Shown: positions 2,607 through 30,489 of the stretch, in pieces
Position numbering within the stretch: the first letter of the stretch is position 1
Layout of the letters: the number at the start of each line of letters is the position of its first letter
Assembly: GCA_944393615.1 (NCBI GenBank)
Contig: CALYAQ010000134.1
Location: forward strand, 1-42,883
DNA: 42,883 bases
DNA from: an uncultured Clostridia bacterium
Lineage (GTDB): Bacteria; Bacillota; Clostridia; TANB77; SIG350
Reading direction: 5' to 3'
Translations under genes and position numbers: made by a program
Notes under the pieces: generated by a model
Database searches by the model: none
What the model saw: the letters and a program-made list of their open reading frames with translations, nothing else
What the model was told of the DNA's origin: nothing

Positions 2607-2615
2607 CTATAGATT

Positions 2616-9972: not shown

Positions 9973-10970
9973 TCTTTATCATCCATTCTAAAAGGTATAA
10001 ATTCCTTACGCTCTAAAATACACTTAATTAATTTATATCCATCTAACTTTATTGCAGTTTTATATGATATTTTTCTTTTTAGTTTTTTATGTTCAAACAC
10101 TTGATTTATTCTATTTTCGAAAGCCTCTATAAAAACTTTTTTACCTTCTTCATTAAGCAAAGCATAATTATACTTTTTATCAAAGTGTTTTTCAACTTTT
10201 AATCGTTTATTATTTACTAAATCAAAAATCGTTTTATATACAATAATAGGTTTAAAAACTTCACTTAAATCTAGCGATAAGGAAAAACGAGCTTCACTCG
10301 GCTCATGCAAAAATGATATACTTTGTTCTAAATGTGTATTATATATTTGGCTTATGGTCTTAGTATATAATAACATATTACCAAAAGAAATTAATGCATT
10401 CATAGGATTATCTGGTGGTCTTTTTACACGCTTATTTATTATAAATTCATTTGGTAGAAATAATTTGAAGCTTTCATAAAATCTAGCCCATATTCCTCCT
10501 TCAATAGCTAATATAGTTTTTATATTATCACATTTTTTTAATAAGCGTGGCACCTCATTATTATAGTAATCTAACAATTCCTTTAATTGTTTTTCTCCAT
10601 GCCTATAATAATGATATAAAACATAATAAATATTTTTACTTATTCCTAAAACTATAGCCTTAGCTATACTCAATCTATCTTCCTTATACATTAAAGCTTG
10701 TTTAATCAAGAGATTACCACTGATTAAGCTTTTTTTAGGATAATATGTTCCAATATAGTTTTCGTAATAATTGAATATATGCACAACTATTCCCGCCTTA
10801 CTAAATGACTCTAATAGTTTTGTAGTTAGTGTAATCTCGTTAAATAAGTATAATTCCTTAACTCTTTCAATAGGTATATAGTAATTACCTTTTTCATTTT
10901 TAAACTTTATAGAAAAATCTTCCCTTGTTAAAGCTCCTTTTGAAAAAATATATTTTGTCTCTTCCTGCAT
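9969..10970 (-). CDS. cas1: CRISPR-associated endonuclease Cas1
   Basis: 333 aa. PPDNPMNALISFGNMLLY and SFLHEPS motifs typical of Cas1. Sits between cas4 and cas2. Confidence 0.9.
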   Translation of the reverse strand: MQEETKYIFSKGALTREDFSIKFKNEKGNYYIPIERVKELYLFNEITLTTKLLESFSKAGIVVHIFNYYENYIGTYYPKKSLISGNLLIKQALMYKEDRLSIAKAIVLGISKNIYYVLYHYYRHGEKQLKELLDYYNNEVPRLLKKCDNIKTILAIEGGIWARFYESFKLFLPNEFIINKRVKRPPDNPMNALISFGNMLLYTKTISQIYNTHLEQSISFLHEPSEARFSLSLDLSEVFKPIIVYKTIFDLVNNKRLKVEKHFDKKYNYALLNEEGKKVFIEAFENRINQVFEHKKLKRKISYKTAIKLDGYKLIKCILERKEFIPFRMDDKE

Positions 10971-10979
10971 ATTTACCTC

Positions 10980-11471
10980 CTAAATATAACAATACTCATA
11001 ATACGCACACTTTTTACATCCTCTAGTACGAGATATATCAGGCACTTTATTAGAAGTTACAAGAATTTCTATTTCTTTAATACAATTTTGTATTTTTTCT
11101 CTGTTTTCATCTGTTAATATTATTTCATCAACTGATTCATTTTTATTTTTTTCAATACATTTTATTTGTCCTATTTTTGTTATTCCTTTTTGTTCTAAAA
11201 CATATAGATAATATAAAACCTGCATTTTAGTAGCTTCTACATCAGCATCACTTTTCTTTATCTCAACAATATATTTATCAGTTATTTTATCAATAGAAAT
11301 ATTCTCCAATTTAACCTCATAATTCTTTTTATCTTCTGATTTAATTTTATGTAATATTCTCCCTATTCTTACATCTTCCGAATTGTCTTCAAGATTTACG
11401 TTGTTACTAAATAGATAGCACTGTCTTTTACAATGCACATAATAATTAACCATTGTACCAGTAATTTTCAT
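10980..11471 (-). CDS. cas4: CRISPR-associated exonuclease Cas4 (RecB-like, Fe-S)
   Basis: 163 aa. N-terminal Cys (YYVHCKRQCYL), EIKKS nuclease motif, C-terminal CxxCxYxxxC (CKKCAYYEYC). Confidence 0.85.
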   Translation of the reverse strand: MKITGTMVNYYVHCKRQCYLFSNNVNLEDNSEDVRIGRILHKIKSEDKKNYEVKLENISIDKITDKYIVEIKKSDADVEATKMQVLYYLYVLEQKGITKIGQIKCIEKNKNESVDEIILTDENREKIQNCIKEIEILVTSNKVPDISRTRGCKKCAYYEYCYI

Positions 11472-13891
11472 AATATTATTCCACCTACTTGTCCTTCATA
11501 TTTACTTCTATTGAATTTTCCATCTTCAATAAATTCATCTCCATTTTCGATATAATATATATTTCCCAATCTTTCTGTACTAAATTGAACTTGATTTGTC
11601 TTATCAGGAAATATATTATATATAAAGTAATTAAATTTTTCCTTTATCTTTGATAGTTCAATCTGCTTTTTAGCGTATGAAATTGAGTAATCATTACATA
11701 ATATTTTATATTGTTTCCATATACTACTACCTTTTATAACTTCACCATCAATATTTATACTACTGTTTAAAAATATCTGCACAGTATTATTATCTATAAG
11801 TTTTAAATCTCTTTCAATACTATTAAAATTCATTAGCATACAATTTTCAAATAACGCATCGGTATTTTCTTTAGTATGTTTAGTTGTCCTTTGATACAAC
11901 TTATCCATAACATTTGTATAATAAAGGTCAAATTGTTTTGTCAACAATATGTTTTTAATATTAGCTTTAGTTAAATTATACTCTAATCTATAATCTCCTT
12001 TATATATTTTTTCTGCTGTATCAATATTAAAAAAGTACGCTATACAATCTTTTTTAACACTTGAACGATTTATTCTACCTAAAAATTGTTCTTCAGAATC
12101 TAATAACGATATATCCTTAAAGCCAACATCCATATCAATATCTACACCCGCTTCTATAGTTTGTGTAGCTACTACTAAAATATCTTTTTTTATTTTTATA
12201 TCATCAATTACCTTTTTCCTATTATAATTGTTATCATCACCTGTTATTTCATAACAAGTTTCAAACTCACTTTTCATTAAGTTATAAAATTCACGTGCTG
12301 TCTTTTTGGTTATAAATTCTACTAAAATTTTCTTACCTTTATACTCACATACTTTATTTTTCAATATTTCTAAATCAATTTCATTATCCAACAATGAGAA
12401 ATCTATCTTCACCCTACTTTTAAAAATATTATTATTATAATATCTTTTGCTATTGTCTATTAAAGACACATATTGAACTTTATCTTGCTTAATTAATTTA
12501 TCTAATCTAGGTAATGTTGCTGACATAATAATAAACTTTATATTAAATAGTTTTGCATATTTATCTAACATATAAATAATGCTACGCCATTTTGAATTGG
12601 TATATGACTGTATTTCATCCAAAACAACTACACTATTTATATAATTATATAACGTAAAATTAGATATCTTCCCTGTGCCAAATAAAGTATTAAATAAATT
12701 AATATGTGTTGTAATTTTAATAGGATAATGTGCAAATACATTTTGTATATACAATAATTCATAATCATTCCTATCTTCTTTTTCGTCTACCATAGGAGTT
12801 AAAGAATTATCTACTATATATTGTTCATATTTCTTAAAATATTTGTCAAATGTTTCTGCTGTTTGTTCAACAAGTGTATTAAATGGGAAAATATAATTTA
12901 AACTATTAATATTATCAAATGATTGGTATAGTATTTTAGCAAGATTAATCGCCATATTAGTTTTTCCTGCACCAGTAGGTGCTTCTAAATAATATATCTG
13001 TTTATCTAAATTGCTTTTTAAATTTTGTTCAGTTTCTATAAACATTTCTGTTCTTAACTTATTTATACCATCTAAATCCGCATTACCACTTTCATATTCT
13101 TTTATTGTCTTATATAGCTTCCCATTTTCATATTTACTAAATAATTCATTATCCTTTTTAATTGCGAAATCCACTTTATTTCCACTCATATATTCATACG
13201 TTGCATAATAGTCAGCAGTTACAAGTACAGAGTATAAAAGTTTTAATAATATATACATTGCTTGCTTATTACCATTTATTTTATTAAATGTATCAGATAT
13301 ATTATTTTTATTTAATAACTTTTCAAATTGTTTTTGATTAAATTTTGTAGAAAAAATATTATACATTTCTATACTAAACATATTTGAAACAAATTTTTGA
13401 ATATCATTTAATTTTGAATGGTGCATAGATACCACATATCCATATGCGAAAATAAGAAGTGTTAGGAAGTTAAAATCAACAAACTCATATTCTCTTATAC
13501 ACTTTTCCATATCTTGTAAAAAAGCGTCAACATATATCCTACTTGAATATATAGAATGTTCACTATTACTATCACTGCCAATATCTATAATTTCATTATC
13601 CATTTTTAATTTTTGAAATACTGGATTAATTTTACCTATATCATGATAATATATCGCACTTTTAAATAAATCATAAGCCTTATTTGCTATATTATCTTTA
13701 ATATTAGGGTATATTTCTTTTAAAATACTATATACTATTTTATCTAACTTTTTATACTCTTCCATTTTAGTATAATACTCAAATGTTAATTCGCAATGTA
13801 GATAAAGTGGCTCTTTCGAACCACTTTGATTAATATGCGAATAAAACTTTTTATCTAAATTAAATATTTTATCTATTATTTCATTATGCAT
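11468..13891 (-). CDS. cas3: CRISPR-associated helicase/nuclease Cas3 (HD domain + DEAD/DEAH helicase)
   Basis: HD motifs (YYHDIGKINPVFQ), Walker A APTGAGKT, DEIQ box (VLDEIQ), SATLP. 807 aa. Confidence 0.9.
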   Translation of the reverse strand: MHNEIIDKIFNLDKKFYSHINQSGSKEPLYLHCELTFEYYTKMEEYKKLDKIVYSILKEIYPNIKDNIANKAYDLFKSAIYYHDIGKINPVFQKLKMDNEIIDIGSDSNSEHSIYSSRIYVDAFLQDMEKCIREYEFVDFNFLTLLIFAYGYVVSMHHSKLNDIQKFVSNMFSIEMYNIFSTKFNQKQFEKLLNKNNISDTFNKINGNKQAMYILLKLLYSVLVTADYYATYEYMSGNKVDFAIKKDNELFSKYENGKLYKTIKEYESGNADLDGINKLRTEMFIETEQNLKSNLDKQIYYLEAPTGAGKTNMAINLAKILYQSFDNINSLNYIFPFNTLVEQTAETFDKYFKKYEQYIVDNSLTPMVDEKEDRNDYELLYIQNVFAHYPIKITTHINLFNTLFGTGKISNFTLYNYINSVVVLDEIQSYTNSKWRSIIYMLDKYAKLFNIKFIIMSATLPRLDKLIKQDKVQYVSLIDNSKRYYNNNIFKSRVKIDFSLLDNEIDLEILKNKVCEYKGKKILVEFITKKTAREFYNLMKSEFETCYEITGDDNNYNRKKVIDDIKIKKDILVVATQTIEAGVDIDMDVGFKDISLLDSEEQFLGRINRSSVKKDCIAYFFNIDTAEKIYKGDYRLEYNLTKANIKNILLTKQFDLYYTNVMDKLYQRTTKHTKENTDALFENCMLMNFNSIERDLKLIDNNTVQIFLNSSINIDGEVIKGSSIWKQYKILCNDYSISYAKKQIELSKIKEKFNYFIYNIFPDKTNQVQFSTERLGNIYYIENGDEFIEDGKFNRSKYEGQVGGIIL

Positions 13892-13914
13892 AACTTTTCT
13901 CCTTTATATATTTT

Positions 13915-14673
13915 CTAAAAGAAAAAAACATTTCTTCCATTTACATTATATACATTATCCGTATTATCTACCTTAATTGATTTATTAGTATAACTAAATT
14001 CTTTAAATTTCGCATAACCTACTTTTTTATGTAATTCAGTTGGCAAAACTTCTTTCATTTCATATTTATATTCATCGTCATTTTCAAATACTAACATTAC
14101 AACATTCTCATCCACCACATATTCTTTATCTGTAAATATTGAAGCTATTTTATCAATATTACTAGCCTCCTTAACATTTTCAAAAACTTCTACACATGAA
14201 ATATTTGCAAAATGGTCGTTTTTTCCTATGTATGGTATATACTCACATTTTCGTTCTAATAAATTGTTTTTTAGCTTAATATATTCATCGCTATCATCAG
14301 ATAATATATATATATTCCATGCTGGATTTTCTATCCATTGTTCTGATACTATTAGATTATTACCTTCCTCTTTTGAAGCATATCCCACACTATTATTAAA
14401 ACTAACCATATTTTTGCTAAAAGTTCCATTATCTGTAAGTGGCTCAACGGCTATTTTAAATTTACTTAAATGTGTATAAAACTCTGGTAATTCATCTTTT
14501 TTATCTTTAAATAAACTGTTATAATTGTATCCATTTTCTCCATTTATAGCTCCTAGTATGCCTAAAATAGCAATTTTATGTATGTTATTATAGCTAAAAT
14601 ATATTACATTACTTTCAGGTCTTTTTAATATTCCAGTCAAACCTTTCAGCTTGAATTTTAATATTTCTTGCAT
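13915..14673 (-). CDS. cas5: Cas5, subtype I-B
   Basis: 252 aa. N-terminal LKFKLKG..GILKRPES..Y Cas5-like beta-hairpin signature. Sits between cas7 and cas3. Confidence 0.75.
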   Translation of the reverse strand: MQEILKFKLKGLTGILKRPESNVIYFSYNNIHKIAILGILGAINGENGYNYNSLFKDKKDELPEFYTHLSKFKIAVEPLTDNGTFSKNMVSFNNSVGYASKEEGNNLIVSEQWIENPAWNIYILSDDSDEYIKLKNNLLERKCEYIPYIGKNDHFANISCVEVFENVKEASNIDKIASIFTDKEYVVDENVVMLVFENDDEYKYEMKEVLPTELHKKVGYAKFKEFSYTNKSIKVDNTDNVYNVNGRNVFFF

Positions 14674-14685
14674 ATTGACCTCCCC

Positions 14686-15606
14686 CTAATATAGCTTATT
14701 AACTATATTAAAATCTTTAACTCCCTTTAATTCAAGATTATAGTCGTTATAGTATATTTCAACTGATTGGATTTGTTCCATCTCTTTTTCAAGAATACTA
14801 TTTAAATTTGTTAAATCGTAAATATCTTTTCCACCATTTAATTTTTCAAAGTTAACATATTCATCTAAATTAGGTAAATACAATTTACTGCCTTCTTTAC
14901 ACTCAACAAATATTGCTAATTCATTTTCACAACCAATTTTACTATTAGTATTAAAAGCTGTTGCAGCAATTTTGCAACCTTCCTTAAATTTTTCATATGC
15001 TTCTTGTGTATATCCTTCAAAATCTTTTACAACCTCTTTATATATATCATAGCTAAAAGGATTTACGGCAAATGGATACACATAATGAGCTTCATCTACA
15101 AATATCTTTGTTCCTAATGTAGTTTGATTTGCATCATCATCTGTTGAATCTCTAAAAGGTGACAATATTTCCATTGTTTCAATGTTAGTATTCTCATATT
15201 TATTATATCCTTGTCCAATTTGTACTGCTCCTGTTATACTAATGTTATTACCGCCTTCTGCAAATGTAGCACCAAAATTCATTACATCAATTGCAGAAAA
15301 TAGATTTGCTATTACTGTCTCTTTTTCTTTTTCACTTTTAATATCCGCATTAAAAATTTGATTATATCTTTCAGCTAAACTTCTAGCTTGTATATTACTT
15401 TTTTCTTTTTTATATGACTTAATGTACAAAACTTTATTATTATCATCTGATTCCCACATTTTTTTAATAGGATACTTAAAAGCCTTATCGCTACCAAAAA
15501 TATTTCCTTCAGAAGTCGTTTTAGGATTGCCTGTAAAGTCCGCATTCCAATTAGACATTACTGATTTTATTGCTACTACACCATATACTCTATTCTTCTT
15601 CTCCAT
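14686..15606 (-). CDS. cas7: Cas7, subtype I-B (Csh2-like backbone subunit)
   Basis: 306 aa. VYGVVAIKSVMSNWNADFTGNPK motif typical of Csh2/Cas7. RBS GGAGG 8 nt upstream. Confidence 0.85.
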   Translation of the reverse strand: MEKKNRVYGVVAIKSVMSNWNADFTGNPKTTSEGNIFGSDKAFKYPIKKMWESDDNNKVLYIKSYKKEKSNIQARSLAERYNQIFNADIKSEKEKETVIANLFSAIDVMNFGATFAEGGNNISITGAVQIGQGYNKYENTNIETMEILSPFRDSTDDDANQTTLGTKIFVDEAHYVYPFAVNPFSYDIYKEVVKDFEGYTQEAYEKFKEGCKIAATAFNTNSKIGCENELAIFVECKEGSKLYLPNLDEYVNFEKLNGGKDIYDLTNLNSILEKEMEQIQSVEIYYNDYNLELKGVKDFNIVNKLY

Positions 15607-17404
15607 CTTCTTTTCCTCCCTTTTCCTTCTTTTCTAAAAGCAAATTGTTTGACAACAATCCAAATATAACAGTATTCTTATAATCTTTAATGTTATATTT
15701 TTCATCATCAATTCCAACTAATTGAGAAAATATATTATTAAACTTTTGATCTTTAACCCATAATTCATATTTATACTTTTCATATAAACTTATTAATGAC
15801 CTTTTCATTTTAGTATTGCTATTTGATCTTAATATTGGTTCAAATAGATTTTGTTTTAATTTACTAGCTTTACTTTTATTAATTAAATAATATGTAATCT
15901 GACCTATAAAATAATAATATATTTGGGCATCTTCAATCTTACCGTTGCTCTCAATAATATTTTTTGCCTTTAGCTTTATTTCTTCAATCTCCATACTAAT
16001 ACTCCTTTCTTTATTTCCAATATACTTATCTAATGCTATCCATAAATTCATTGATTTAATTGCATTAGAAGTTTTCTTTTCTACCAACTCATCTATTAAA
16101 TAGTTTAATGTTATTTCATAACCTATAGTATTTAATTTAGATTTTAAGCTTTTACTATTTTCTTTTTTAAAGAATTCTTTAAAAACTCTAGCATATAGTT
16201 TTAACATATTCTTTTTCCAATTTGTTAACCCTCTTCCAGACTTTACATTTCTATCGTAATCATAATATGCAGATTTTAAATATCCCGAAAACCAAACTTT
16301 ACTAACAAAACTCTCTATTTCACTTTTATATTCAGTATTAATATCAAAATCTTTTAAGGGCACTGAATTAATATAATTTTTACATTCAAACCTTTTTACT
16401 TTATCTGAATAACTATTTAAATACTCACATTCTTCCACTTTTGCAAATCCATTATCATTTGTAGCCCTAATCAAATACGCAGGTGCTCCAACATATGCCA
16501 TATCTTCTAAATTACCCTTAAATTGATAAGATAAAGGTATAATAACATCTGGTTTAGTTGTTACATTTTTTAAAATCCACGTATACATATTTGCAATTAT
16601 TTTTTCTTCTTCATATGCTGTTAATGACATTTTGTATGGAGTTGTCTTTAATTCTAAATATGGTTTTTTAGAATTGCTTCCATAATTGTAGTTATTAATT
16701 CCATAAATATCTTCAGAATATTTAGTCATTAATTCTTCTTTATTAAAAATTTTTAATTTACTATATACCGTTGATGCTTCCATATATTCTTCTTGTGTAC
16801 CTTCAAAAAATATTTTTACCCATACTTCTTTCTTTATATCTTTTATTTCCTTAATTCTAATAGCAACATCATCCATAACTGTATCAGTTAATGCTTCTAT
16901 CTTGTCTATCTTTTCTTCTGAAATTAACTTATCTTTTAAATCACTAAATAACTCTTCCTTACTATTTGTCACTTCATTCATTGATACTTTTATTTGAGCA
17001 TAATATTGTTTAATTCCTCTTTTAAAAACTTCTATTGGCATAGCATTTTCTACTTCAGTATTGCCTGTAAAATCTTGCAAAGATTTGTTCTTGAAGAAAA
17101 TTGTTAGATAATTGTTGCTAAATATTTTTTTCATCATCTTATATTCTTTACCATCTACAGTTTCAGCATAATTATTAGGTATACACTTATTAGCGCCAAA
17201 GCAATTGCTATAATAGTCTCTGCACGCAAAATATTCGTATATATCCGACGTATTTTCTGTATCTTTGTCTACATTAAGCATGTCCACATATTTTCCATCT
17301 TGCGTATACAAAAAATATATTCCATTTTGTAAGCTGTATGTTTCAATCATAGTTTCATCTTTTTCGAAATACTCTTTAAAGCTATTTGCAAAATCTTTTA
17401 TCAC
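15590..17404 (-). CDS. cas8b: Cas8b large subunit, subtype I-B (Csh1-like)
   Basis: 604-aa protein between cas6 and cas7. GTG start sharing one base with the cas6 TAG (TAGTG). Poorly conserved family, called mainly from position and size. Confidence 0.75.
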   Translation of the reverse strand: MIKDFANSFKEYFEKDETMIETYSLQNGIYFLYTQDGKYVDMLNVDKDTENTSDIYEYFACRDYYSNCFGANKCIPNNYAETVDGKEYKMMKKIFSNNYLTIFFKNKSLQDFTGNTEVENAMPIEVFKRGIKQYYAQIKVSMNEVTNSKEELFSDLKDKLISEEKIDKIEALTDTVMDDVAIRIKEIKDIKKEVWVKIFFEGTQEEYMEASTVYSKLKIFNKEELMTKYSEDIYGINNYNYGSNSKKPYLELKTTPYKMSLTAYEEEKIIANMYTWILKNVTTKPDVIIPLSYQFKGNLEDMAYVGAPAYLIRATNDNGFAKVEECEYLNSYSDKVKRFECKNYINSVPLKDFDINTEYKSEIESFVSKVWFSGYLKSAYYDYDRNVKSGRGLTNWKKNMLKLYARVFKEFFKKENSKSLKSKLNTIGYEITLNYLIDELVEKKTSNAIKSMNLWIALDKYIGNKERSISMEIEEIKLKAKNIIESNGKIEDAQIYYYFIGQITYYLINKSKASKLKQNLFEPILRSNSNTKMKRSLISLYEKYKYELWVKDQKFNNIFSQLVGIDDEKYNIKDYKNTVIFGLLSNNLLLEKKEKGGKEDGEEE

Positions 17405-18096
17405 TAGTTCTTCCCTCCTTTACCTGCTTTACAGAATCCAAATCCATATGAATTTTTTTCTGCTGCTCCTGTTGCAAAAACTATCCAGGCTAATTTTTGT
17501 GCATCTTCATCAGATTTTACTTCAAACTCAAACTTATTACCCAATAGAAAAATTTTTTTATATGGTATTTTAATTGGTACTTTATTTAATTTTGTTATAT
17601 TAGTTATAAAGTCTGTAGTAATATCTTCTCCAAATATCATTTTATATTTTTTTTGTGCATTATCTGTGATACGTTTTTTTACAAATTCTAAATCATCTGG
17701 TATTTTGTATCCTAAATCTGTAGTCATTATGCATGGAGTTAATGTGACTAATTTTTCAATATTTCTATACTCATTTGAAATTAAATTTAGCATTACTATT
17801 TTAAAATCTTCATTTTCACAATTAAATAATAATTGTTTTAATTTAGCCACAAATTCTACATCAATAGCTCTAATATCAAATTGATATAGGCTACCCGCAC
17901 GATAAACACCATCTTTTGGTATTGCATATGGCAAACAAAAAGTATACATTTTATATTTATTAGTTTCATGTAAAACTTTTAACTCATCATCTTTAGACAT
18001 GGCAAAACTAATAAAATTACCAAGTCTATAATAGGCTTCTTTGTTGTCCATGCTATTTTTAAATAGAATAATAGCTTTCATATTATATGTTATCAT
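17404..18096 (-). CDS. cas6: Cas6 crRNA endoribonuclease
   Basis: 230 aa. C-terminal Gly-rich loop GAAEKNSYGFGFCKAGKGG. First gene of the cas operon. Confidence 0.8.
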   Translation of the reverse strand: MITYNMKAIILFKNSMDNKEAYYRLGNFISFAMSKDDELKVLHETNKYKMYTFCLPYAIPKDGVYRAGSLYQFDIRAIDVEFVAKLKQLLFNCENEDFKIVMLNLISNEYRNIEKLVTLTPCIMTTDLGYKIPDDLEFVKKRITDNAQKKYKMIFGEDITTDFITNITKLNKVPIKIPYKKIFLLGNKFEFEVKSDEDAQKLAWIVFATGAAEKNSYGFGFCKAGKGGKN

Positions 18097-18379: not shown

Positions 18380-21300
18380 ATTTAAATACAACTATTGTCA
18401 AGGTTCAACGTCCAATTACTAATACAACTATTTCCACAACTATCACATTTAAATACAACTATTGTCAGGGTTCAACGAAAAAGACGGTGGTATGGGGTTG
18501 TCTTGGTTTTGATTTAAATACAACTATTGTCAAGGTTCAACTTTATCTTCGCAAATTTCAATACCTATATGTGTATATTTAAATACAACTATTGTCAAGG
18601 TTCAACTTCAGTATCAAAACTACTTTCATAAACTTTATATTCATTTAAATACAACTATTGTCAAGGTTCAACGTAACATTAATATTACTACTAAAACTAC
18701 CCTCTATTATTTAAATACAACTATTGTCAAGGTTCAACAAAACTAATGTTAGAAGATGTTAAAAATAAAAAATAATTTAAATACAACTATTGTCAAGGTT
18801 CAACGTTGTTAATGTACGTACTAAGTATTGTTGCAGAAATATTTAAATACAACTATTGTCAAGGTTCAACAATAATTTAGTTACTCAAATAACAACTATA
18901 GAAGGATTTAAATACAACTATTGTCAAGGTTCAACTTTGATATAAATTCAATAAATATTCTCCAACAATTATTTAAATACAACTATTGTCAAGGTTCAAC
19001 TTCCGTGAAAGCTTTTTAGAGGCCTTAAAGCTAGTATTTAAATACAACTATTGTCAAGGTTCAACTCTTGTACATGCCAATCATAAATAATATATGCATT
19101 AATTTAAATACAACTATTGTCAAGGTTCAACAAGTTCCAAGTTATAAAAGAATGTGTGTGTGTATATATTTAAATACAACTATTGTCAAGGTTCAACGAT
19201 TATAGACGTACCGGCTGAAGTAATTTATGAAGGATTTAAATACAACTATTGTCAAGGTTCAACAATGCGGACTATTATAAATATTACAAGTGTTATATAT
19301 TTAAATACAACTATTGTCAAGGTTCAACCAAAAGGGAGAGGAGAAACCGGAGGAAGAACTTACCTATTTAAATACAACTATTGTCAAGGTTCAACATAAT
19401 TTTAAAATCTTTGATTGGTATCTTAACAATAATTTAAATACAACTATTGTCAAGGTTCAACAGTTGGCGATACAACACTAACTAAAATGTTATATGAGAT
19501 TTAAATACAACTATTGTCAAGGTTCAACACCACCTGCTAAACATAAAACACGATTATTATAACCATTTAAATACAACTATTGTCAAGGTTCAACTCTTTC
19601 TCTAAAGTATGGCGATAGTGTCGTACCACCATTTAAATACAACTATTGTCAAGGTTCAACAGATGCATTTAATTTAGGTAATGCTATTTTGGTTTCATTT
19701 AAATACAACTATTGTCAAGGTTCAACAATTAACCAAGAGCGAAGAAGAGCTAGCAAAATGGACATTTAAATACAACTATTGTCAAGGTTCAACGATTATA
19801 GACGTACCGGCTGAAGTAATTTATGAAGGATTTAAATACAACTATTGTCAAGGTTCAACGGCACACAAGCAGAATACGATGCAATTACAACAAAAAGATT
19901 TAAATACAACTATTGTCAAGGTTCAACCTTCTGGTTTTTCATCATCTAAATTTTCAAGAACATTTAAATACAACTATTGTCAAGGTTCAACGCTATGTTA
20001 TCCTGTAAAAAAACAGGAGGTGCTTTAATTTAAATACAACTATTGTCAAGGTTCAACGCTGTTTCTTGTTCTTTTATTTTTTTATTAGTTGCTATTTAAA
20101 TACAACTACTGTCAAGGTTTACCTTTTTTAATCAAAAAGTGTCTTAAAAAGCAATAAAAATTTAAATACAACTATTGTCAAGGTTCAACGAACGAATGTT
20201 TAAAATTAAAGGAGGTATATTTTAATTTAAATACAACTATTGTCAAGGTTCAACATAAATATTAAGTTTACTTTTAGCAAAATAATATTTATTTAAATAC
20301 AACTATTGTCAAGGTTCAACGTTACTCAGCATTTATTAACTGCAGATGCTTTAAATCATTTAAATACAACTATTGTCAAGGTTCAACTGCGAAAGAGGGA
20401 AATCGTACAAAGAGGTGTTCTTATTTAAATACAACTATTGTCAAGGTTCAACACTTGCAAAGCTACTAGCAATCATTATTTTTGCTATATTTAAATACAA
20501 CTATTGTCAAGGTTCAACTCAATTCTGTTTCTGATATATTTCTATGTAAAAGATTTAAATACAACTATTGTCAAGGTTCAACGGGAACATTAAAAGAATT
20601 ATTAAAGGAGGAGTGAACAATTTAAATACAACTATTGTCAAGGTTCAACACAACCATATAAAAACATATTATACAGCAGATATGTATTTAAATACAACTA
20701 TTGTCAAGGTTCAACACAAGAAAGTGGCAAGAGTGTTGCAAGTATATTCTAATTTAAATACAACTATTGTCAAGGTTCAACTTTAAATCTTGCATTGTAA
20801 AACCACTTGATAAGGGTATTTAAATACAACTATTGTCAAGGTTCAACATATATAATTCCTTGTTTGTTCTATCTGCATCTATATTTAAATACAACTATTG
20901 TCAAGGTTCAACTTCTTCACTACTAATTCCAAATTCTTTCATTAACATATTTAAATACAACTATTGTCAAGGTTCAACATTACAAGCAAATACCATATTA
21001 AACAAGCTTATTATAATTTAAATACAACTATTGTCAAAGTTCAACTCTCCGCATGTCCCTCTTCAATATTCCTTTTTTATATTTAAATACAACTATTGTC
21101 AAGGTTCAACTTCTAGTAATGTAATATTGATAAAAGTAATACATTGATTTAAATACAACTATTGTCAAGGTTCAACAGTGCCATGTTTTATGTATAGGCA
21201 ACCAAACACGTATTTAAATACAACTATTGTCAAGGTTCAACATATTTTAGTCAAATTTGACTTAAAACCTAAAATAATTTAAATACAACTATTGTCAAGG

Positions 21301-24300
21301 TTCAACCAAACATTTGTAATTACTAATATCAATCAATTCGTGATTTAAATACAACTATTGTCAAGGTTCAACTATTTACAAAAAATGTAAAAAAACAAGT
21401 AAAAGCATATTTAAATACAACTATTGTCAAGGTTCAACTACACATATATATTTTTTTCTATCTCTTTTTTGCGATTTAAATACAACTATTGTCAAGGTTC
21501 AACCATATATAATTACCTCGAAAGTGAGGTGAATTATTAATTTAAATACAACTATTGTCAAGGTTCAACAAATCCTACCTCTCTGTAACAATCTGGATAT
21601 TTACTATTTAAATACAACTATTGTCAAGGTTCAACGTAGCTCTCAAATTTACTACCAAATAATGTTTCCGGAATTTAAATACAACTATTGTCAAGGTTCA
21701 ACACAATTAGGATTTAATCCTATTAGCAAAAAAGAGCAGTATTTAAATACAACTATTGTCAAGGTTCAACAATTAATTATGACTATGTTATAATATATAT
21801 GTAAGTTATTTAAATACAACTATTGTCAAGGTTCAACATTTCAAATATATCATCGGTGCTATAACTAAAGGTATTTAAATACAACTATTGTCAAGGTTCA
21901 ACACTAATACAATCAAATAAATTTGCAGTGGTAATAAAATTTAAATACAACTATTGTCAAGGTTCAACTATTAGTAGCTTTAATGAAGAAATAGTCGATA
22001 GGTATTTAAATACAACTATTGTCAAGGTTCAACTGATTGTATATGTACAATCTCCGCTTCCATTCCTTCATTTAAATACAACTATTGTCAAGGTTCAACT
22101 TTTACTTTTAGCCCACTTGCTTTTTTAACAATACTATTTAAATACAACTATTGTCAAGGTTCAACATGTGATTGGTATTGGGGATTTGGATATATTGTAA
22201 GATTTAAATACAACTATTGTCAAGGTTCAACTGTGTAAATTTTAAATGTATTATAAATTTATAATATATTTAAATACAACTATTGTCAAGGTTCAACATA
22301 CAAGCCATTAAAAAAGATGAGGGATGGTTAAAATTTAAATACAACTATTGTCAAGGTTCAACTTTGTCCAAAGTGCATAAACACTAAACGCGGTGAGATT
22401 TAAATACAACTATTGTCAAGGTTCAACTATATGTCTTGTCTGTCAATAGTTTATTGTTAACTATTTAAATACAACTATTGTCAAGGTTCAACATTTATCA
22501 GCAACAAAAACATAGGTTGCTTTTTTGTATTTAAATACAACTATTGTCAAGGTTCAACCATAATCGACAATTGCAAAGACACCGAAGGTTCTTATTTAAA
22601 TACAACTATTGTCAAGGTTCAACTCTTATTGTTGTAGGTATGCCTAATCCATTGTCTAATTTAAATACAACTATTGTCAAGGTTCAACTTTGTCAAAAGT
22701 GCATAAAAACTAAACGCGGTGAGGATTTAAATACAACTATTGTCAAGGTTCAACTCTAACACTATCATTAGAATTGCTTTCTATGTACTATTTAAATACA
22801 ACTATTGTCAAGGTTCAACTTTAATATGTATTGTGCAATGTTTACTGGCTTTTAATTTAAATACAACTATTGTCAAGGTTCAACTACGTTGCTTGTCTGT
22901 CAATAGTTTATTGTTAACTATTTAAATACAACTATTGTCAAGGTTCAACCGGAGATTGTACATATAAATTTAAAGCCGTAGTAAAATTTAAATACAACTA
23001 TTGTCAAGGTTCAACCCTATTGGCAATAAAAACATAGGTTGCTTTTTTGTATTTAAATACAACTATTGTCAAGGTTCAACTAATTATTGCCATTTAGCTA
23101 ACAGTATATTTATTGCATTTAAATACAACTATTGTCAAGGTTCAACATTCTTTGTGTGGAATGTAGGGGATATGCAATAAAACAATTTAAATACAACTAT
23201 TGTCAAGGTTCAACTTTATTTTATTATTTATTTTATTTATATATAAAAATTTAAATACAACTATTGTCAAGGTTCAACGGAGTATATGGGTGGTATGCTG
23301 ATGTATTTCATCTATTTAAATACAACTATTGTCAAGGTTCAACGATGATATAATAGGCGTTTTAACTTGCTACAATTTAATTTAAATACAACTATTGTCA
23401 AGGTTCAACTCCTTGCTGATAATACCCCCAAAATGTATCTCCACTATTTAAATACAACTATTGTCAAGGTTCAACATTTTAGGAAGTATATATTTTATAC
23501 TTCTTTTTTTAATTTAAATACAACTATTGTCAAGGTTCAACTTATAGAGAGGTAGGATTTTACACTATAAAAGAGGAATTTAAATACAACTATTGTCAAG
23601 GTTCAACTTATAAAAGTGTTGTAGCCGAATATAATAAAACTGCATTTAAATACAACTATTGTCAAGGTTCAACATGTACTAGTACATAATAGTAATGTTA
23701 TTATATTAGATTTAAATACAACTATTGTCAAGGTTCAACCAATGCAATCCTTCATTTCTTTTAGTACTTCAAAAATTTAAATACAACTATTGTCAAGGTT
23801 CAACACTTGTATAATATATATGTAAGTTAGATATAACTTAATTTAAATACAACTATTGTCAAGGTTCAACCTGTGTTTTTACTATATATATAATATAAAC
23901 ACTAAAATTTAAATACAACTATTGTCAAGGTTCAACTTGTGCGTCGTTTTTTGTTTTTGACTTTTTAGCAATTATTTAAATACAACTATTGTCAAGGTTC
24001 AACATTTTTGACAAATTTTATCCTCTTCTTTTATAGTGATTTAAATACAACTATTGTCAAGGTTCAACCTTATATTTCTTCATTAGATTTTTTACAAAAG
24101 CCAATTTAAATACAACTATTGTCAAGGTTCAACGTTCCTTTGACAATTTGTTTTTACTCTCTAATTCTATTTAAATACAACTATTGTCAAGGTTCAACTA
24201 TATAAGGAGGTAGAAAATATGAATAAACCTATGAATTTAAATACAACTATTGTCAAGGTTCAACAATTGGAGACCCGCAAACAATACAACTTCTTTCATT

Positions 24301-25050
24301 ATTTAAATACAACTATTGTCAAGGTTCAACACCAATTTGTTAACGTCATTTCTAAACGTAACCATATTTAAATACAACTATTGTCAAGGTTCAACGCGAA
24401 TATGCAAACCTTTGCTAATACTACTTTACAATTTAAATACAACTATTGTCAAGGTTCAACGTAAATAAAGAATTGATAAAAATATTAGGACTAGAATTTA
24501 AATACAACTATTGTCAAGGTTCAACATACACAAAAAGAAATAATAAAAACGGCACATCACGATTTAAATACAACTATTGTCAAGGTTCAACCATATATTT
24601 TATGGCACAGCAAACAGGAAATTAAGATTTAAATACAACTATTGTCAAGGTTCAACTTTTTTATTAGCCATTAATACCACTCTCCTTTAAATATTTAAAT
24701 ACAACTATTGTCAAGGTTCAACTTTTTATCCCCTCAACACCTAGAAACACAACGGTTATTTAAATACAACTATTGTCAAGGTTCAACTCTACTGGGTTTG
24801 ATTTAGTACCGGCACTTAATCAATTTAAATACAACTATTGTCAAGGTTCAACCTACAACCTCTTTGCCTTTTTTTAAGGTGTCACTAAATTTAAATACAA
24901 CTATTGTCAAGGTTCAACATAATTCCTCGTATCTCCTTTTACCTTCTAATGTTATTTAAATACAACTATTGTCAAGGTTCAACTTATGCTAGGAATAGCA
25001 ATATTCAGGCAAGAACCAGTATTTAAATACAACTATTGTCAAGGTTCAAC
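18380..25050 (-). CRISPR. Type I-B CRISPR array, 102 repeats / 101 spacers
   Basis: 30-bp repeat ATTTAAATACAACTATTGTCAAGGTTCAAC on plus, GTTGAACCTTGACAATAGTTGTATTTAAAT on minus (clostridial I-B style, ending ATTTAAAT). Spacers are 34-38 nt and all repeat starts were located by hand. Variant repeats at 18447-18476 (1 substitution), 20094-20123 (3 substitutions) and 21016-21045 (1 substitution). Confidence 0.97.
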
Positions 25051-25369: not shown

Positions 25370-26542
25370 TTAAATGGTAGAAATTGGTAAAAACCTTTCC
25401 AGAAATACACAATCATTAGGACCATTTTTATAGTTCTTTTCTGTAAACCAAATTTGATCTTTTCTAAAAATTGTTAAACTCAACAAATTCGTATCATGAG
25501 TATTAAAGATTAATTGCACTCCTTTCTTATTTGTGTTTGTATTATTAAATAATTTAACTATATAAATTACTAATAATGGATGCAAACTTTTATCAAGTTT
25601 ATCTATTACCATAACATTACCTTTTTGTAATGTTTCTTTTATAAATGGAATTAATAGAAAAATATTTTTTGTTCCTACAGATTCTTCTTCAAAGCCAAGT
25701 ACACCATCCATAACATTTCCATCTTCATCTTTAAAGGTATGTCTAGTTGTTACATTATATCCTTTTATTCCATTAGACATTAATGGTCTTAATTAAGGTG
25801 GAACTGACAATAAATATTCTTCAGTAATCTTAATATTTTTCACATTAAAATTACTAATATTTAAATCTGTTTTACTTAATAAATTTAAAGAAAATTTTCT
25901 CAATTTACCCGTTTTATCCATATCATATCGTTCAAATGCAAATCCTGTTAATGGTTCATATTCAAAAATAACATTTAAACCATTTGTTAAAAATTCATAC
26001 ACTGGTTTGGTTTTTTCATAATTCCATGTTGTTACTGTTACTAAAAAGAATTTATTTTCCATATTTTTTTCTTTTATATCATTTAATTCATTTTCTGATT
26101 TTGTAAAATGATAATCATTTACATTAGTTCTTTCAAATATTTCTGTTTGTTTTCCATTAGGATAATAATACAAGTATTCTTCATATATTTTATATTTGTC
26201 TAATTTGAATCCATATACATATTTAATTCTATCCAATTTCATTATAATTTCAAATTCACTTTTACCTTTAATCGTACTATTATTAAATTGAAATGGTACA
26301 AAAGGTAATGGCATTTTAGGTTGCATATTATTTGAATTTTTCAACATTAAAACAATTAAATTTAAAGCTTTAAATAAATTACTTTTTCCTGAAGCATTAG
26401 CTCCATATATAACTGCCGACTTTAAATAATTTTCTTTTTCGTCCTTTATTAAATTTTCTTCATGTGCTTTGTTTTTAGATGCCAACATACTAAAAGTCAC
26501 TTTTTCTTTTATAGACATAAAATTCTTTACACTAAACTGCAT
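25370..26542 (-). pseudogene. AAA_21/ABC-like defence-type ATPase interrupted by a single in-frame TAA
   Basis: ORFs 25793-26542 and 25370-25780 are in the same frame (26542-25780=762). They are separated only by TAA at 25795-25793 (..LLSVPP*LRPLMSNGIKGY..). Walker A GANASGKSN; C-terminal VMVIDKLDKSLHP...QLIFNTHDTNLL...RKDQIWFTEKN. Confidence 0.75.
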
Positions 26543-26708: not shown

Positions 26709-26757
26709 ATAAAAAAAAGAAAAAACTACTACTTGAATGGTAAACATTCAAGTAGTA
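26709..26757 (-). terminator. Orphan rho-independent terminator (copy 1 of a duplicated hairpin)
   Basis: Minus strand TACTACTTGAATG-tttac-CATTCAAGTAGTA then GTTTTTTCTTTTTTTT. No minus-strand gene lies immediately upstream of it. Confidence 0.7.
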
Positions 26758-26948
26758 AAAAAGGTATGGTGGAAGTTTAAAAAATTGAATTTGAAAATTT
26801 ATTTCTTCTTCATAACTAACTACGGTTTTTTCTTTCATATATCTTGTTTCCTTCTTGTTCAGCATTTGTAGCACATTGTAAAAAAAGCTGTTATATTAAC
26901 ATTTTTTCTCTTTATATTGCTCTTTTTGAAATAAAATTTACTCAAACA

Positions 26949-26977
26949 TTGAAAATTGTTGAAAATTTTGATATTAT
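26949..26977 (+). promoter_or_regulatory. Putative sigma-A promoter of the 2TM-protein/RT operon
   Basis: TTGAAA (26949-26954), 17 nt, TATTAT (26972-26977), 28 nt upstream of the start at 27006. TTGAAAATT is directly duplicated. Confidence 0.45.
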
Positions 26978-27005
26978 ACAATATATACTAATAATGGAGG
27001 TAAAA

Positions 27006-28379
27006 ATGGACTTGTTTAAATGTTTATGTAATATAGATTATAGAAATCCATGCAGTATACTTTTTGTATCTGCTATTATTATACTACTTATAGGAATATC
27101 TTTAATAACAAATTTTATAATTATACCTGGTATTCTATTAACAATATTAGGAGTTTTATTAATTATAATTTTTTATATAGTAAAAAAACACTTATATAAC
27201 GAACTACCTGTTGTAAAAGGAAATAAAAATGCTGGCATTTTAATTCGAATTTTTGCTAAAGACGAAGAAGAATATGATGATTTAAAATATAAATTTTTAA
27301 ATGAATTTACTTATGTTCTTGCTAATGAAAAAACAAAGCACTTTAAAACAATATGCATACCATTTCATTTAATAGACGAATATTCGTCAAATAATGAAGG
27401 TGATATTATAAAATTACTCGAGAAAACAAATTGTGTATCTCTTATAACCGTGCGTACAAAATCAGAACAATTAGATTTAACAACACAATATGTTACAGAA
27501 TTCACTTTAGGTATTATGCATCCACATTATATAAAAAATTTAAATAACTTATTGCAACAAGAAATAAATAAACTATTATCGAAAACATCTAAATTTAAAT
27601 ATTTAAAAGAAAATAAAATGCAAGTTTTAGAAACTATGGGTCAAAATTCATCATTTATTTGCCAATATATAATAACAAAATCTTTTTTTCTAAACGGACA
27701 AATAAATGATGCAAAAAACATGGGAACAGATTTATATGAAAAAATAAAAAATTTTTCTAGTAAAGAGATTACCAATACTTTAATTAATCTAACTAAAAAT
27801 TTATGCTATAATATACATCTTTTTTCATTATTTATTGAATTCTCAAAAATCGAATTAAATTTAAATGAAATAGGAAAAGAATTAAATGAAATGAATAATT
27901 ATATCCCCAACACCTACGATTACTATGAAGGAATGTGTGTTTATACATTTTTAAAACATAGAGATATTACTAAAGTAAAAGAATATATAAATAAATGCAA
28001 ACAATTAAATGGACCTAAAACATGGAAATATAATGAAGCTTTTTTATATGCTTATATGGAAAAATCAGAAGGACAAATTATTAGTAAATATATTCAAGCT
28101 TTTAAAATACCATATAATCATAGTGAATTAGTATACTTTATAGAAAATATCTATGATAAGGAAAAGAAAAATACCTTGGCTTTCGCATTAGCAATTTTAT
28201 ACATTGCTTTAGAGCAAAAAGAACTTGCAATCTTATTCTTACACGAATATCTAAATAACAAACCTTCTCATTCACTCGAAGAAGATACCTTTAAAAAATT
28301 ATCAAAAAAATTTGATAAAAAACTTGTTAACTCTATATACAAGCAAGCATCATTAAATAAAAAAGAAGAAAGAATGTGA
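27006..28379 (+). CDS. Hypothetical membrane protein: 2 N-terminal TM helices, ~130-aa mixed domain, long helical TPR-like C-terminus (RT partner)
   Basis: Start set at ATG 27006 (MDLFKCL..) with GGAGG at 26996-27000; the longer track ORF from 26844 has no RBS. TM helices SILFVSAIIILLIGISLITNFII and IPGILLTILGVLLIIIFYIV. No family recognised. Confidence 0.7.
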   Translation: MDLFKCLCNIDYRNPCSILFVSAIIILLIGISLITNFIIIPGILLTILGVLLIIIFYIVKKHLYNELPVVKGNKNAGILIRIFAKDEEEYDDLKYKFLNEFTYVLANEKTKHFKTICIPFHLIDEYSSNNEGDIIKLLEKTNCVSLITVRTKSEQLDLTTQYVTEFTLGIMHPHYIKNLNNLLQQEINKLLSKTSKFKYLKENKMQVLETMGQNSSFICQYIITKSFFLNGQINDAKNMGTDLYEKIKNFSSKEITNTLINLTKNLCYNIHLFSLFIEFSKIELNLNEIGKELNEMNNYIPNTYDYYEGMCVYTFLKHRDITKVKEYINKCKQLNGPKTWKYNEAFLYAYMEKSEGQIISKYIQAFKIPYNHSELVYFIENIYDKEKKNTLAFALAILYIALEQKELAILFLHEYLNNKPSHSLEEDTFKKLSKKFDKKLVNSIYKQASLNKKEERM

Positions 28380-28383
28380 TATT

Positions 28384-29853
28384 ATGAAAAAAATACTATA
28401 TATGTCTAATACAAATGCAAAAAAATATTTTATGAAAAATTCAAGTTATTTTTATTTACATTTACCCGAATACTATAACTTTGCTCCTCTATTAAATTCA
28501 CTAGACCTTCAACTTAATAATCATCTTCTATCTGATTTATATAATACTCCTCCTCACAAAGTTGATAACGTAAATTACAAAATTTTATCTAATAAAGATG
28601 GAAAATATGCTTGGAGATTACTACAACTAATACATCCTGCTTTATATATTGAATTGGTTAACATTATTACTGAAAAAGGCAATTGGAAAATATTAAAAAA
28701 ATGTTTTTCAAACTTCAAAAGTAACCATAATATAGTATGTTGTAGTGATCTTGTAGAGTCTTCCTCAAAAAACAATGATACAGGTGCATCTATTAATCAA
28801 TGGTGGACAACCTTAGAGCAAGAATCAATACGCTTGTCATTGGAATATAATTATATTGGTATAACAGATATTACTGATTGTTATAGTTCTATTTATACAC
28901 ATTCAATTTCATGGGCAATACACGGTAAACAATATTCTAAAGACCACATTGACGACAAGCAGTTGTTAGGATATAAAATTGACAGAGTGCTTAAAGCTAT
29001 GTCATACGGACAAACCAATGGTATTCCTCAGGGTAGTACATTATGCGATTTTATAGCTGAAATTATTTTGGGTTACTGCGATATATTGATTGGAGATGAA
29101 TTATTAAAACATGCAATAACAAAATATAAAATTTTACGTTTTAGGGACGACTACCATATATTTTCAAATAGCAAAGAAGAACTTGATATTATATTAAAAA
29201 TAATTTCCGAAGTTTTATCATCATTAAATTTAAAAATTAATGTTCAAAAAACTTTGGTTTCTCAAAATGTTATTTCTTCTTCAATAAAAAAATCAAAACT
29301 AGATGTTCTTAATAAATTTAACAATAACCTTAACCTTCAAAAACATTTATTGTGTATACGTGAATTTGCATTAGAACATCCTAATAGTGGTTCTTTACAA
29401 GTTTTATTAAAAAATTTATATGAAAAAAGAATTGAAAAAATAAATAGAAAACCCAAGGATATAATGGTAATAATTAGTATCATAGTAGATATTATGTACA
29501 ACAATAGTAAAACCTATGATGTTTGCATATATATTTTAAGCAAATTATTAACCTTCATAGATAAAGAACCTATTATACGTCTTATAGAAAACAAATTTAA
29601 ACAAGTTCCTAATATTGCTTATCTAGATATATGGCTACAAAGATTAACAATTCTCGACAATCGTAATCGTACATATACGTCTACTATTTGCCAATTATTA
29701 TACAATCCTACGATAAATTTATGGAATAATTCTTGGCTTAATTTAAACATAGATTCGCAACTAATTATAGATGAAAATGCTATTAATAATATTTCTAACG
29801 TTTTACCAAGCCGTAATTTATCTTTATTTGATGATTTTTATCTGTATCATTAA
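28384..29853 (+). CDS. Stand-alone reverse transcriptase, UG/Abi (defence-associated, DRT-like) style
   Basis: RT motifs: KDGKYAWRLLQLIHP; TDITDCYSSIYTHSISWAIHGK; GIPQGSTLCDFIAEIIL; ILRFRDDYHIF (DD codons 29146-29151); LKINVQKT. Helical C-terminal tail. Start is 4 nt after the upstream stop. Confidence 0.85.
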   Translation: MKKILYMSNTNAKKYFMKNSSYFYLHLPEYYNFAPLLNSLDLQLNNHLLSDLYNTPPHKVDNVNYKILSNKDGKYAWRLLQLIHPALYIELVNIITEKGNWKILKKCFSNFKSNHNIVCCSDLVESSSKNNDTGASINQWWTTLEQESIRLSLEYNYIGITDITDCYSSIYTHSISWAIHGKQYSKDHIDDKQLLGYKIDRVLKAMSYGQTNGIPQGSTLCDFIAEIILGYCDILIGDELLKHAITKYKILRFRDDYHIFSNSKEELDIILKIISEVLSSLNLKINVQKTLVSQNVISSSIKKSKLDVLNKFNNNLNLQKHLLCIREFALEHPNSGSLQVLLKNLYEKRIEKINRKPKDIMVIISIIVDIMYNNSKTYDVCIYILSKLLTFIDKEPIIRLIENKFKQVPNIAYLDIWLQRLTILDNRNRTYTSTICQLLYNPTINLWNNSWLNLNIDSQLIIDENAINNISNVLPSRNLSLFDDFYLYH

Positions 29854-29870
29854 TGAACTGTATAACAATA

Positions 29871-29895
29871 AAAAGCATTGATGCTTTTTTTATTA
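29871..29895 (+). terminator. Weak rho-independent terminator after the RT gene
   Basis: AAAAGCA-ttga-TGCTTTT followed by a T-rich run, 18 nt after the stop. Confidence 0.4.
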
Positions 29896-30132: not shown

Positions 30133-30489
30133 TTACTTTTCAGTATTATCTAACACATTTATACAATATGTAGGTTCACTCAAACGTTCCGTTGCTAATT
30201 TCAACCCTTTTTCCTTTGCAATTCTAATAATTGCTATTTTTATCAAATGATTCCTTATATTTTCTATTTCTGAAATATATGTTTTACTATTATACACACT
30301 TGAAAAAGAATCAATTTCATTTATTTCATTAGCATAATATTGATATAAATATTTAATATAGCAACCATCTCTATCACCTTGTCCAAAATTATTTGCCCAC
30401 ACTCTTTTCAAATCAACTTGAACTTCTTTAACATCTTCGCTTGCTTTTGCTTGCAAAATCTTTTCGATTATTTTTAGTATTTCATTCAT
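30133..30489 (-). CDS. Hypothetical 118-aa protein
   Basis: RBS GGTGGTGA 7 nt upstream of ATG 30489. Candidate extended -10 TGTATAAT at 30595-30588. No recognisable motif. Confidence 0.55.
   Translation of the reverse strand: MNEILKIIEKILQAKASEDVKEVQVDLKRVWANNFGQGDRDGCYIKYLYQYYANEINEIDSFSSVYNSKTYISEIENIRNHLIKIAIIRIAKEKGLKLATERLSEPTYCINVLDNTEK

Follow-up and report, generated by a model that had tools for sequence, protein, structure and literature searches.

The RT-like polymerase Abi-P2, found in a P2-like prophage of Escherichia coli, is a known single-gene anti-phage defence. It has been described as a protein-primed, template-independent DNA polymerase that uses a tyrosine of its own as primer (PMC9508834), and its structure is available as Protein Data Bank (PDB) entry 7R08 (PMC11077055). 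The priming tyrosine, which sits in the loop between the fingers helices alpha2 and alpha3, was identified through the Y61F mutant, in which DNA synthesis is abolished (PMC9508834). In this work, we analyzed two adjacent genes in a 42,883-nt stretch of DNA from an uncultured Clostridia bacterium (contig CALYAQ010000134.1), hereafter the window, to which all unlabelled coordinates refer. The downstream gene (28384..29853, plus strand) is a 489-aa open reading frame (ORF) encoding an Abi-P2-type reverse transcriptase (RT)-like polymerase, here called the RT. The upstream gene (27006..28379, plus strand) is a 457-aa ORF encoding a membrane-anchored protein of an uncharacterised family, here called the partner. 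A first-pass annotation, which placed both ORFs correctly, had proposed that they form a dedicated and so far uncharacterised two-gene defence module. Our results make it quite likely, instead, that the RT is an abortive-infection polymerase of the canonical Abi-P2 kind and owes its expression to the tail of an unrelated, independently acting gene, which codes for a membrane protein with tetratricopeptide-like repeats (TPR). The RT belongs to an already known family, the family of the partner is unannotated, and nothing found here shows a new system.

Results

The RT matches the PADLOC AbiP2 model over practically its whole length (E = 2e-177, 588.9 bits; residues 1-484 on profile positions 4-485 of 489), whereas the other PADLOC models give much weaker scores, namely RT_UG14 (second best, 157.8 bits), Drt4 (140 bits) and AbiK (96.6 bits). 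It also matches the Abi-P2 chain 7r08_A (E = 1.9e-80, 273.9 bits) over residues 1-452, which take in the RT-like domain together with the larger part of the helical tail, as well as the Pfam family RVT_1. All the RT motifs quoted in the first-pass annotation are present in the translation. D162 of motif A (28867-28869, plus strand) and D255/D256 of motif C (29146-29151, plus strand) are invariant in an alignment of 26 RT relatives, and so is Y30 (28471-28473, plus strand), whose role was mapped from the published priming residue (PMC9508834); the helical domain extends from about residue 300 to the C-terminus. Motif C reads FRDD and not YRDD, the relatives having either Y or F at this position. 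Since the 7R08 chain carries a 31-residue tag, with chain residue 32 aligning with M1, Tyr61 of the published mutant corresponds to native Y30, which aligns without gaps with Y30 of the window RT (LHLPEYYNF).

The RT family comprises more than 4,000 clusters at 90% identity (E <= 1e-30), and the nearest relatives of the window RT are just 57% identical to it, which makes it a divergent yet typical member. Judged by its sequence, it is a full-length, canonical member of the Abi-P2 family. At 100 loci with Abi-P2-type RTs (29-57% identity), the genes found upstream and downstream of the RT come from many families unrelated to each other, and none of them recurs as a partner, as is expected of a single-gene system. 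The earlier placement of the RT among the abortive-infection (Abi) and unknown-group (UG) defence RTs, with Abi-P2 as one of the named candidates, was therefore sound, and so was the exclusion of a retron, a group II intron, a diversity-generating retroelement (DGR) or a Cas1 fusion; the description as uncharacterised is superseded by the full-length AbiP2 match.

It had also been suggested that the 240-bp upstream and 280-bp downstream flanks of the pair might encode a template or primer non-coding RNA (ncRNA) for the RT; retrons and DRT2 employ an RNA of this kind. Non-coding flanks of a suitable size do exist, and we found no convincing ORF in them, but we consider this suggestion very improbable. 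Abi-P2 is template-free and primed by a tyrosine (PMC9508834) that is conserved in the window RT, and no ncRNA would thus be expected. No Rfam match at gathering score was found in either flank, and among the window matches listed all correspond to CRISPR repeats. The folding energies of the flanks showed no excess over those of dinucleotide shuffles (z = +0.55 upstream and -0.95 downstream). Furthermore, the upstream flank holds the promoter-like site and the ribosome-binding site of the partner, and the downstream flank opens with a terminator-like hairpin, both of which are described below.

The evidence that bears most directly on the proposed module comes from the conservation of the pairing. 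A tblastn search with nine partner-family proteins found no homologue of the partner in any of the 100 RT loci, and a partner-family profile hidden Markov model (HMM), run on the ORFs that flank the RTs of these loci, gave a best E-value of 0.16. Conversely, no RT adjoins a partner homologue in any of the 11 independent loci that represent the contexts of the partner family (L001, L002/L003, L004, L005, L006/L007, L012, L013, L014, L111/L112, L113 and L114). The other copies of the pair come from just two assemblies of the same strain, with a single nucleotide polymorphism over 3.6 kb. An apparent case of a split RT next to an intact partner (L115) was considered as a sign of independence and discarded; the break is a 10-N scaffolding gap in this same strain and is evidence neither way. 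As the two genes were never found together elsewhere, comparison of the sequences indicates that they are probably two neighbours sharing a transcript and not a dedicated two-gene defence system. Lack of co-conservation is the outcome that the first-pass annotation had itself named as speaking against a dedicated module, and that part of it is abandoned here.

The short distance between the two genes had been part of the original proposal, and it is real: the stop codon of the partner (TGA, 28377-28379) is separated from the start codon of the RT (ATG, 28384) by a 4-nt spacer (TATT, 28380..28383, plus strand). We evaluated this spacing in those other RT loci that offer 400 nt or more of upstream sequence (85 loci), with RT starts anchored by homology and considering same-strand upstream ORFs of 100 aa or longer. 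In 36 of the 85 loci (42%) such an ORF ends no more than 60 nt from the RT start. The -4 nt overlaps between upstream gene and RT that resulted from plain ORF calls were not used, as they were partly an artefact of over-extended RT starts. Most of the upstream genes that could be identified are parts of well-known, unrelated defence systems. They encode HsdS (10 loci) and also HsdM, AbiEii (4 loci), Schlafen (SLFN)/AlbA_2-HATPase proteins (3 loci), short prokaryotic Argonautes (pAgo; 2 loci), a DpnII-type helical restriction endonuclease (REase) of the pAgo-associated kind (2 loci), a trypsin-TPR protein (2 loci), a type IIG restriction-modification (R-M) enzyme and a protein with a ResIII domain. 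In 3 loci the preceding gene is not one of defence and encodes a phage integrase.

These upstream associations turn over quickly. The RT of L008, which is SLFN-linked, shares 73% identity with that of L011, which stands alone, and the same value was obtained for an RT linked to the trypsin-TPR protein (L028) and one linked to the type IIG enzyme (L026). The nearest relatives of the window RT (49-57% identity) are preceded by SLFN/AlbA-HATPase, DpnII-type REase or AbiEii genes, or stand alone. Given the tight placement behind so many unrelated genes, the 4-nt spacing is weak evidence of partnership, and it is simplest to regard the Abi-P2 gene as an autonomous cassette that has inserted time and again behind the 3' ends of other genes in defence islands.

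Two of these arrangements deserve a separate description. The type I R-M specificity gene hsdS lies directly upstream of the RT in L038, L056, L065, L066, L075-L079 and L091 (10 loci). The RTs behind hsdS are 46-100% identical to each other (median 52%), a low identity which implies that this embedding is old or has been repeatedly re-created, and a limited full-text literature search found no report of the placement of Abi-P2 RTs behind hsdS. In addition, a fusion of a trypsin-like protease and TPR ends at the RT start with a gap of 0 nt in L028 (fusion at 1233-3203 of that locus) and L029 (2599-4785), and its protease domain matches the PADLOC model of the retron type XI RT-protease. The protease-TPR protein and the RT may constitute a real pairing, which is seen only for RTs that are 92% identical.

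The layout of the locus is that of an operon, and the partner and the RT are very probably co-expressed as one transcription unit in this strain, given the 4-nt gap, the weak Shine-Dalgarno (SD) sequence of the RT, the single promoter-like site and the single terminator. The promoter-like site lies upstream of the partner (26949..26977, plus strand; TTGAAA, 17 nt, TG-TATTAT, with an extended -10) and is the top-scoring promoter match of the plus strand by agreement with the consensus (10/12 positions plus TG), in a region where promoter-like matches are not enriched relative to shuffled sequences. It probably drives both genes. The partner has a strong SD sequence, GGAGG (26996..27000, plus strand), 5 nt 5' of its ATG. 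The calculated energies of the anti-SD duplex are -10.6 kcal/mol for the partner and -1.7 kcal/mol for the RT, the median over 26 genes of the window being -6.3 kcal/mol. As the RT is nearly devoid of an SD sequence of its own, its translation probably depends on that of the partner, by relying on ribosomes that finish the partner ORF. The intrinsic-terminator-like hairpin (29870..29889, plus strand) starts 17 nt 3' of the RT stop codon and consists of an 8-bp stem (AAAAAGCA/UGCUUUUU) and a 4-nt loop, followed by a U-rich run. It is the sole element of the downstream flank common to the minimum free energy and centroid folds, and it was missed by a consensus terminator scan owing to its G-C pairs, which number fewer than 3. 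The G+C content of the region (21-26%) matches that of the remainder of the window. The translational coupling and the own promoter and terminator of the first-pass annotation are thus in agreement with the present data.

The architecture of the partner was analyzed with an AlphaFold2 (AF2) model built with a 75-sequence alignment (pLDDT 93.6, pTM 0.87). The model and the hydropathy profile agree with the three parts described in the first-pass annotation. A transmembrane hairpin (residues 16-35 and 40-64; 27051-27197), preceded by a short N-terminus and with a 4-residue loop between its helices, coincides with 19-aa Kyte-Doolittle windows that reach 3.1 over residues 12-65, and is retained in most of the 75 relatives. 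It is followed in the model by an alpha/beta domain with five strands (residues 76-200; 27231-27605) and by TPR-like helical repeats (residues 201-456; 27606-28373; about 13 helices). Basic residues follow the second transmembrane helix, so that, according to the positive-inside rule, the greater part of the protein, including both the alpha/beta domain and the TPR-like array, probably lies on the cytoplasmic side.

The most conserved positions in the wider family (H172, Y221, W340, A345, F346, A349, Y350, Y362, A365 and L391) are mostly located in the helical repeat region and are aromatic or small. None of them is an acidic, Ser, Cys or Lys residue of the kind that would point to catalysis, and they look like TPR packing positions and not like a catalytic set. 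The top Foldseek matches of the partner are TPR superhelices, with high probability, E-values of about 4e-3 and weak TM-scores; searches of two models against the PDB and of BFVD returned TPR/Sel1 solenoids alone, all with E > 1e-3. Pfam TPR models are matched by 4 of the 75 family members, and sequence and profile searches with the window partner itself found nothing in Pfam, PADLOC, NCBIfam or the PDB. The PADLOC models gave just single matches on the 75 members (E >= 0.0017), which does not support membership in a recognised defence effector family such as SLATT or the two-transmembrane effectors of retrons, CBASS or Pycsar. The partner can therefore be assigned to no named effector, as had been noted, generic TPR being the most that these databases provide. 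Two other candidates were rejected as noise, viz. look-alikes in BFVD combining a family 2 glycosyltransferase (GT2) with TPR (E > 2e-3, TM-score <= 0.25) and a sequence match to myelin P2/fatty-acid-binding proteins (E = 0.04).

An exhaustive profile search with E <= 1e-3 as the limit retrieved 807 cluster representatives (50% identity), of which 112 reach E <= 1e-30; almost all of the representatives are 430-480 aa long and matched over their full length. The family size emerged from this HMM search; a word-indexed search had found five relatives of the partner (39-42% identity), and a further one with the 75-sequence profile only two extra proteins. A pattern-based scan of 185,579 species genomes gave three matches, which were two Clostridia metagenome-assembled genomes and a distant Chitinophagales protein. 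The partner was absent from PLSDB plasmids and INPHARED phages (tblastn) and from an IMG/VR scan.

Among the 68 neighbouring ORFs of the partner family, defence and mobile-element genes are mixed with housekeeping genes. The former include a Bsp6I-type R-M pair, an intact AbiLi and RloB pair and a type I REase, together with DpdF-like and PDC-type proteins, Mob_Pre, PIN and HicB; the latter include MutL, MiaA, riboflavin synthesis and RecQ. An all-versus-all comparison of the neighbours over the partner-family loci revealed no conserved adjacent gene and no exopolysaccharide (EPS) genes beside the relatives. Recurrence with the family is limited to one neighbour, the AbiLi-type ATPase, which is present in L012 and in the window, and this could be chance within defence islets. 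In L012 (3513-7251) an intact AbiLi gene (439 aa) and an RloB-like gene lie two genes upstream of the partner homologue, on the same strand. These neighbourhoods are suggestive of small variable islets and of a function linked to defence or mobile elements. The family members stand alone in such islets, frequently with mobilisation, toxin-antitoxin, AbiL-type or R-M genes nearby. As for the genes that follow family members on the same strand, a DUF6731 gene starts 15 nt after the one in L114 (1466-2383), and a gene for a 380-aa protein of no known family starts 40 nt after the one in L002 (6471-7613); the membrane-TPR protein may head variable two-gene cassettes.

Taken together, the partner family is most likely an independent module, whose members might themselves be defence or abortive-infection proteins. 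That its roughly 800 representative clusters constitute a new stand-alone, membrane-anchored defence gene is a tentative proposal, which we put forward with reserve. A different role is conceivable, namely that the partner is a housekeeping or envelope membrane TPR protein with no role in defence, situated at the edge of a variable islet beside a polysaccharide cluster. The fairly large size of the family, its uniform length and the lack of a match to defence models would fit such a protein, as would the housekeeping genes found next to many relatives, the EPS locus that the islet abuts in the window and the weak GT2 and TPR look-alikes of the viral fold search. Yet those fold matches are not significant (E > 1e-3, TM-score <= 0.25), no neighbour is conserved across loci, the EPS genes are not seen beside relatives, and the family recurs next to R-M, AbiLi and RloB, Mob_Pre, PIN and HicB genes; its distribution is patchy, at least at the sensitivity of the pattern scan. 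We therefore regard a housekeeping role as rather doubtful.

The pair lies in a defence neighbourhood. A complete type I-B cas operon (9969-18096, minus strand) encodes Cas6, a 604-aa Cas8-like protein, Cas7, Cas5b, Cas3, Cas4 and Cas1b; the subtype follows from the scores of Cas1b (380 bits, cut-off 304) and Cas5b (168 bits, cut-off 97). It adjoins a CRISPR array of about 6.7 kb (18380-25050, plus strand) with at least 100 copies of a 30-nt repeat (Rfam CRISPR-DR3), which ends some 3.3 kb from the RT. Between the array and the partner lies an AbiLi-like AAA_21 ATPase gene (25370-26542, minus strand), divergent from the partner. The I-B system and the ATPase had both been recognised in the first-pass annotation; the ATPase gene contains an in-frame stop codon (TAA, 25793-25795) that leaves ORFs of 249 and 136 aa. 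Two other assemblies of the strain show the same split, which makes a true pseudogene probable, and no RloB/AbiLii gene adjoins it. A strong terminator-like hairpin (26726-26758, minus strand), with a 14-bp stem and a T-run, is located between the start of the ATPase gene and the partner promoter. No gene of the minus strand terminates there, and the hairpin may represent either an orphaned terminator or an insulator at the insertion boundary of the partner-RT cassette. On the other side, a 118-aa ORF (30133-30489, minus strand) faces the RT in convergent orientation, shows no significant match to any family and keeps its position in two other assemblies. Beyond it, polysaccharide-synthesis genes (FrhB/4Fe-4S protein, MOP flippase, pyruvyl transferase) follow on the minus strand.

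The proximity of this very long array raised the question of whether the RT could be a CRISPR-associated, AbiP2-like RT ("clade 15") serving the neighbouring CRISPR-Cas system, as an AbiP2-like clade linked to CRISPR, specifically to type I-C, has been reported (PMC8632793). This reading was rejected as extremely unlikely. The window system is of type I-B and not I-C, the array separates the RT from cas1, the RT is on the strand opposite to the cas genes, the disrupted ATPase gene and the partner gene lie between the RT and the array, and homologues of the window Cas proteins occur in none of the 100 related RT loci.

Discussion

The results presented herein favour a model in which the Abi-P2 cassette, directly behind the partner gene, would borrow the promoter of the partner and, probably, its translating ribosomes, while the partner, with its N-terminal two-helix membrane anchor, would act independently of the RT. 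By homology to the solved E. coli Abi-P2, the RT would assemble into a trimer, prime DNA synthesis from the hydroxyl of its own tyrosine Y30, and make random-sequence single-stranded DNA (ssDNA) without a template, which would stay covalently bound to the RT itself. This product would then block phage multiplication through a further, downstream step, and the phage resistance expected of the window RT is likewise predicted from the known family member.

Several observations weigh against this model and have to be considered. The near-absence of an own ribosome-binding site ties the expression of the RT to that of the partner, as a true two-component system predicts. Single proteins of a sensor- or effector-like kind are found directly upstream of a few RTs of the family (trypsin-TPR at 0 nt, SLFN/AlbA at 15 nt). 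The contexts available for the partner are few, 11 independent loci versus around 800 family representatives, and L005 and L006/L007 are among short contigs in which the downstream gene may be cut off. Finally, a 2021 review considers it unclear whether other elements of the Abi-P2 loci are needed for defence (PMC8632793).

Some of these points can be read in favour of a genuine, lineage-specific two-gene Abi system, in which the RT would sense infection or make DNA and the membrane TPR protein would be its effector, acting for instance by oligomerising and damaging the membrane, or else its membrane tether or regulator. The transmembrane hairpin of the partner, like that of many defence effectors, and the defence-island setting would suit this alternative, and so would the single upstream proteins just mentioned. 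A weak SD sequence and co-expression fit a piggy-backing cassette and a true operon alike, and for this reason the obligatory link in expression created by the 4-nt gap and the very weak RT signal is the main point in its favour; together with the small sample of partner contexts, it keeps the alternative alive. Nevertheless, we judge it unlikely. The two genes do not co-occur in either set of loci, the other copies of the pair belong to a single strain and differ by one nucleotide, and tight placement of the same kind is seen behind systems that are both complete and unrelated, type I R-M, AbiE and pAgo among them; moreover, the partner lacks a PADLOC effector match and its conserved residues suggest no catalysis. 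If the two proteins did cooperate, this would bear on how Abi-P2/AbiK-type polymerases stop phages. It may further be imagined, with little probability in our opinion, that the Abi-P2 RT recruited the partner here, so that the TPR region would sense protein-linked ssDNA or a phage trigger and the transmembrane hairpin would damage the membrane. Were this the case, the missing effector step of Abi-P2-type immunity would be supplied, and Abi-P2 RTs would be hubs that pair with interchangeable upstream modules (the two-transmembrane TPR protein, trypsin-TPR or SLFN/AlbA).

The preferred reading, an Abi-P2 polymerase expressed from the tail of an independent gene, has implications beyond this locus. 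What appeared to be a new RT defence module is corrected to a divergent, Clostridia-type member of Abi-P2 and an unrelated neighbour. Abi-P2 genes are very often placed directly behind other defence genes, on which they may depend for expression, and tight spacing in defence islands is thus poor ground for inferring a partner and calls for caution. The partner, for its part, defines a sizeable, uniform and unannotated family of membrane-anchored TPR proteins with a high-confidence structural model, and its recurrence in variable islets makes it a reasonable candidate for defence-island screening.

The comparison with described systems supports the separate treatment of both proteins. Like the generic TPR/Sel1 scaffolds, the partner has a C-terminal part of about 255 residues modelled as a TPR-like alpha-solenoid; unlike them, it carries a transmembrane hairpin and a 125-aa alpha/beta domain with no recognisable counterpart. 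Its resemblance to retron two-transmembrane effectors, and to defence-associated RT (DRT) systems with small membrane proteins, is superficial and consists in an RT gene that lies beside a gene for a protein with two transmembrane helices. Those membrane proteins are small and co-conserved with their RT, whereas the window partner has 457 aa, with large alpha/beta and TPR parts that are probably cytoplasmic, and is not found with an RT elsewhere.

The RT belongs to one superfamily with AbiK and AbiA of Lactococcus, DRT4, Drt6 and UG14, whose RT-like polymerases are protein-primed, work without a template and carry a helical domain at the C-terminus. However, the AbiK, Drt4 and UG14 models score much lower than AbiP2, and AbiA has a HEPN domain that the window RT lacks. 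The closest counterpart is Abi-P2 from the E. coli P2-like prophage (7R08). Both proteins have about 490 aa, consist of fingers/palm and an Abi-type helical domain with neither thumb nor maturase domain, possess three catalytic Asp residues as well as a priming tyrosine located in the N-terminal loop, and are encoded in variable, AT-rich defence regions. They differ in that their identity is moderate, in that the host of the window RT is a low-GC, Clostridia-like bacterium, and in that motif C is FRDD instead of YRDD. A last difference lies in the genetic arrangement, as Abi-P2 is a lone cassette, whereas the window RT would be expressed from the 3' end of another gene.

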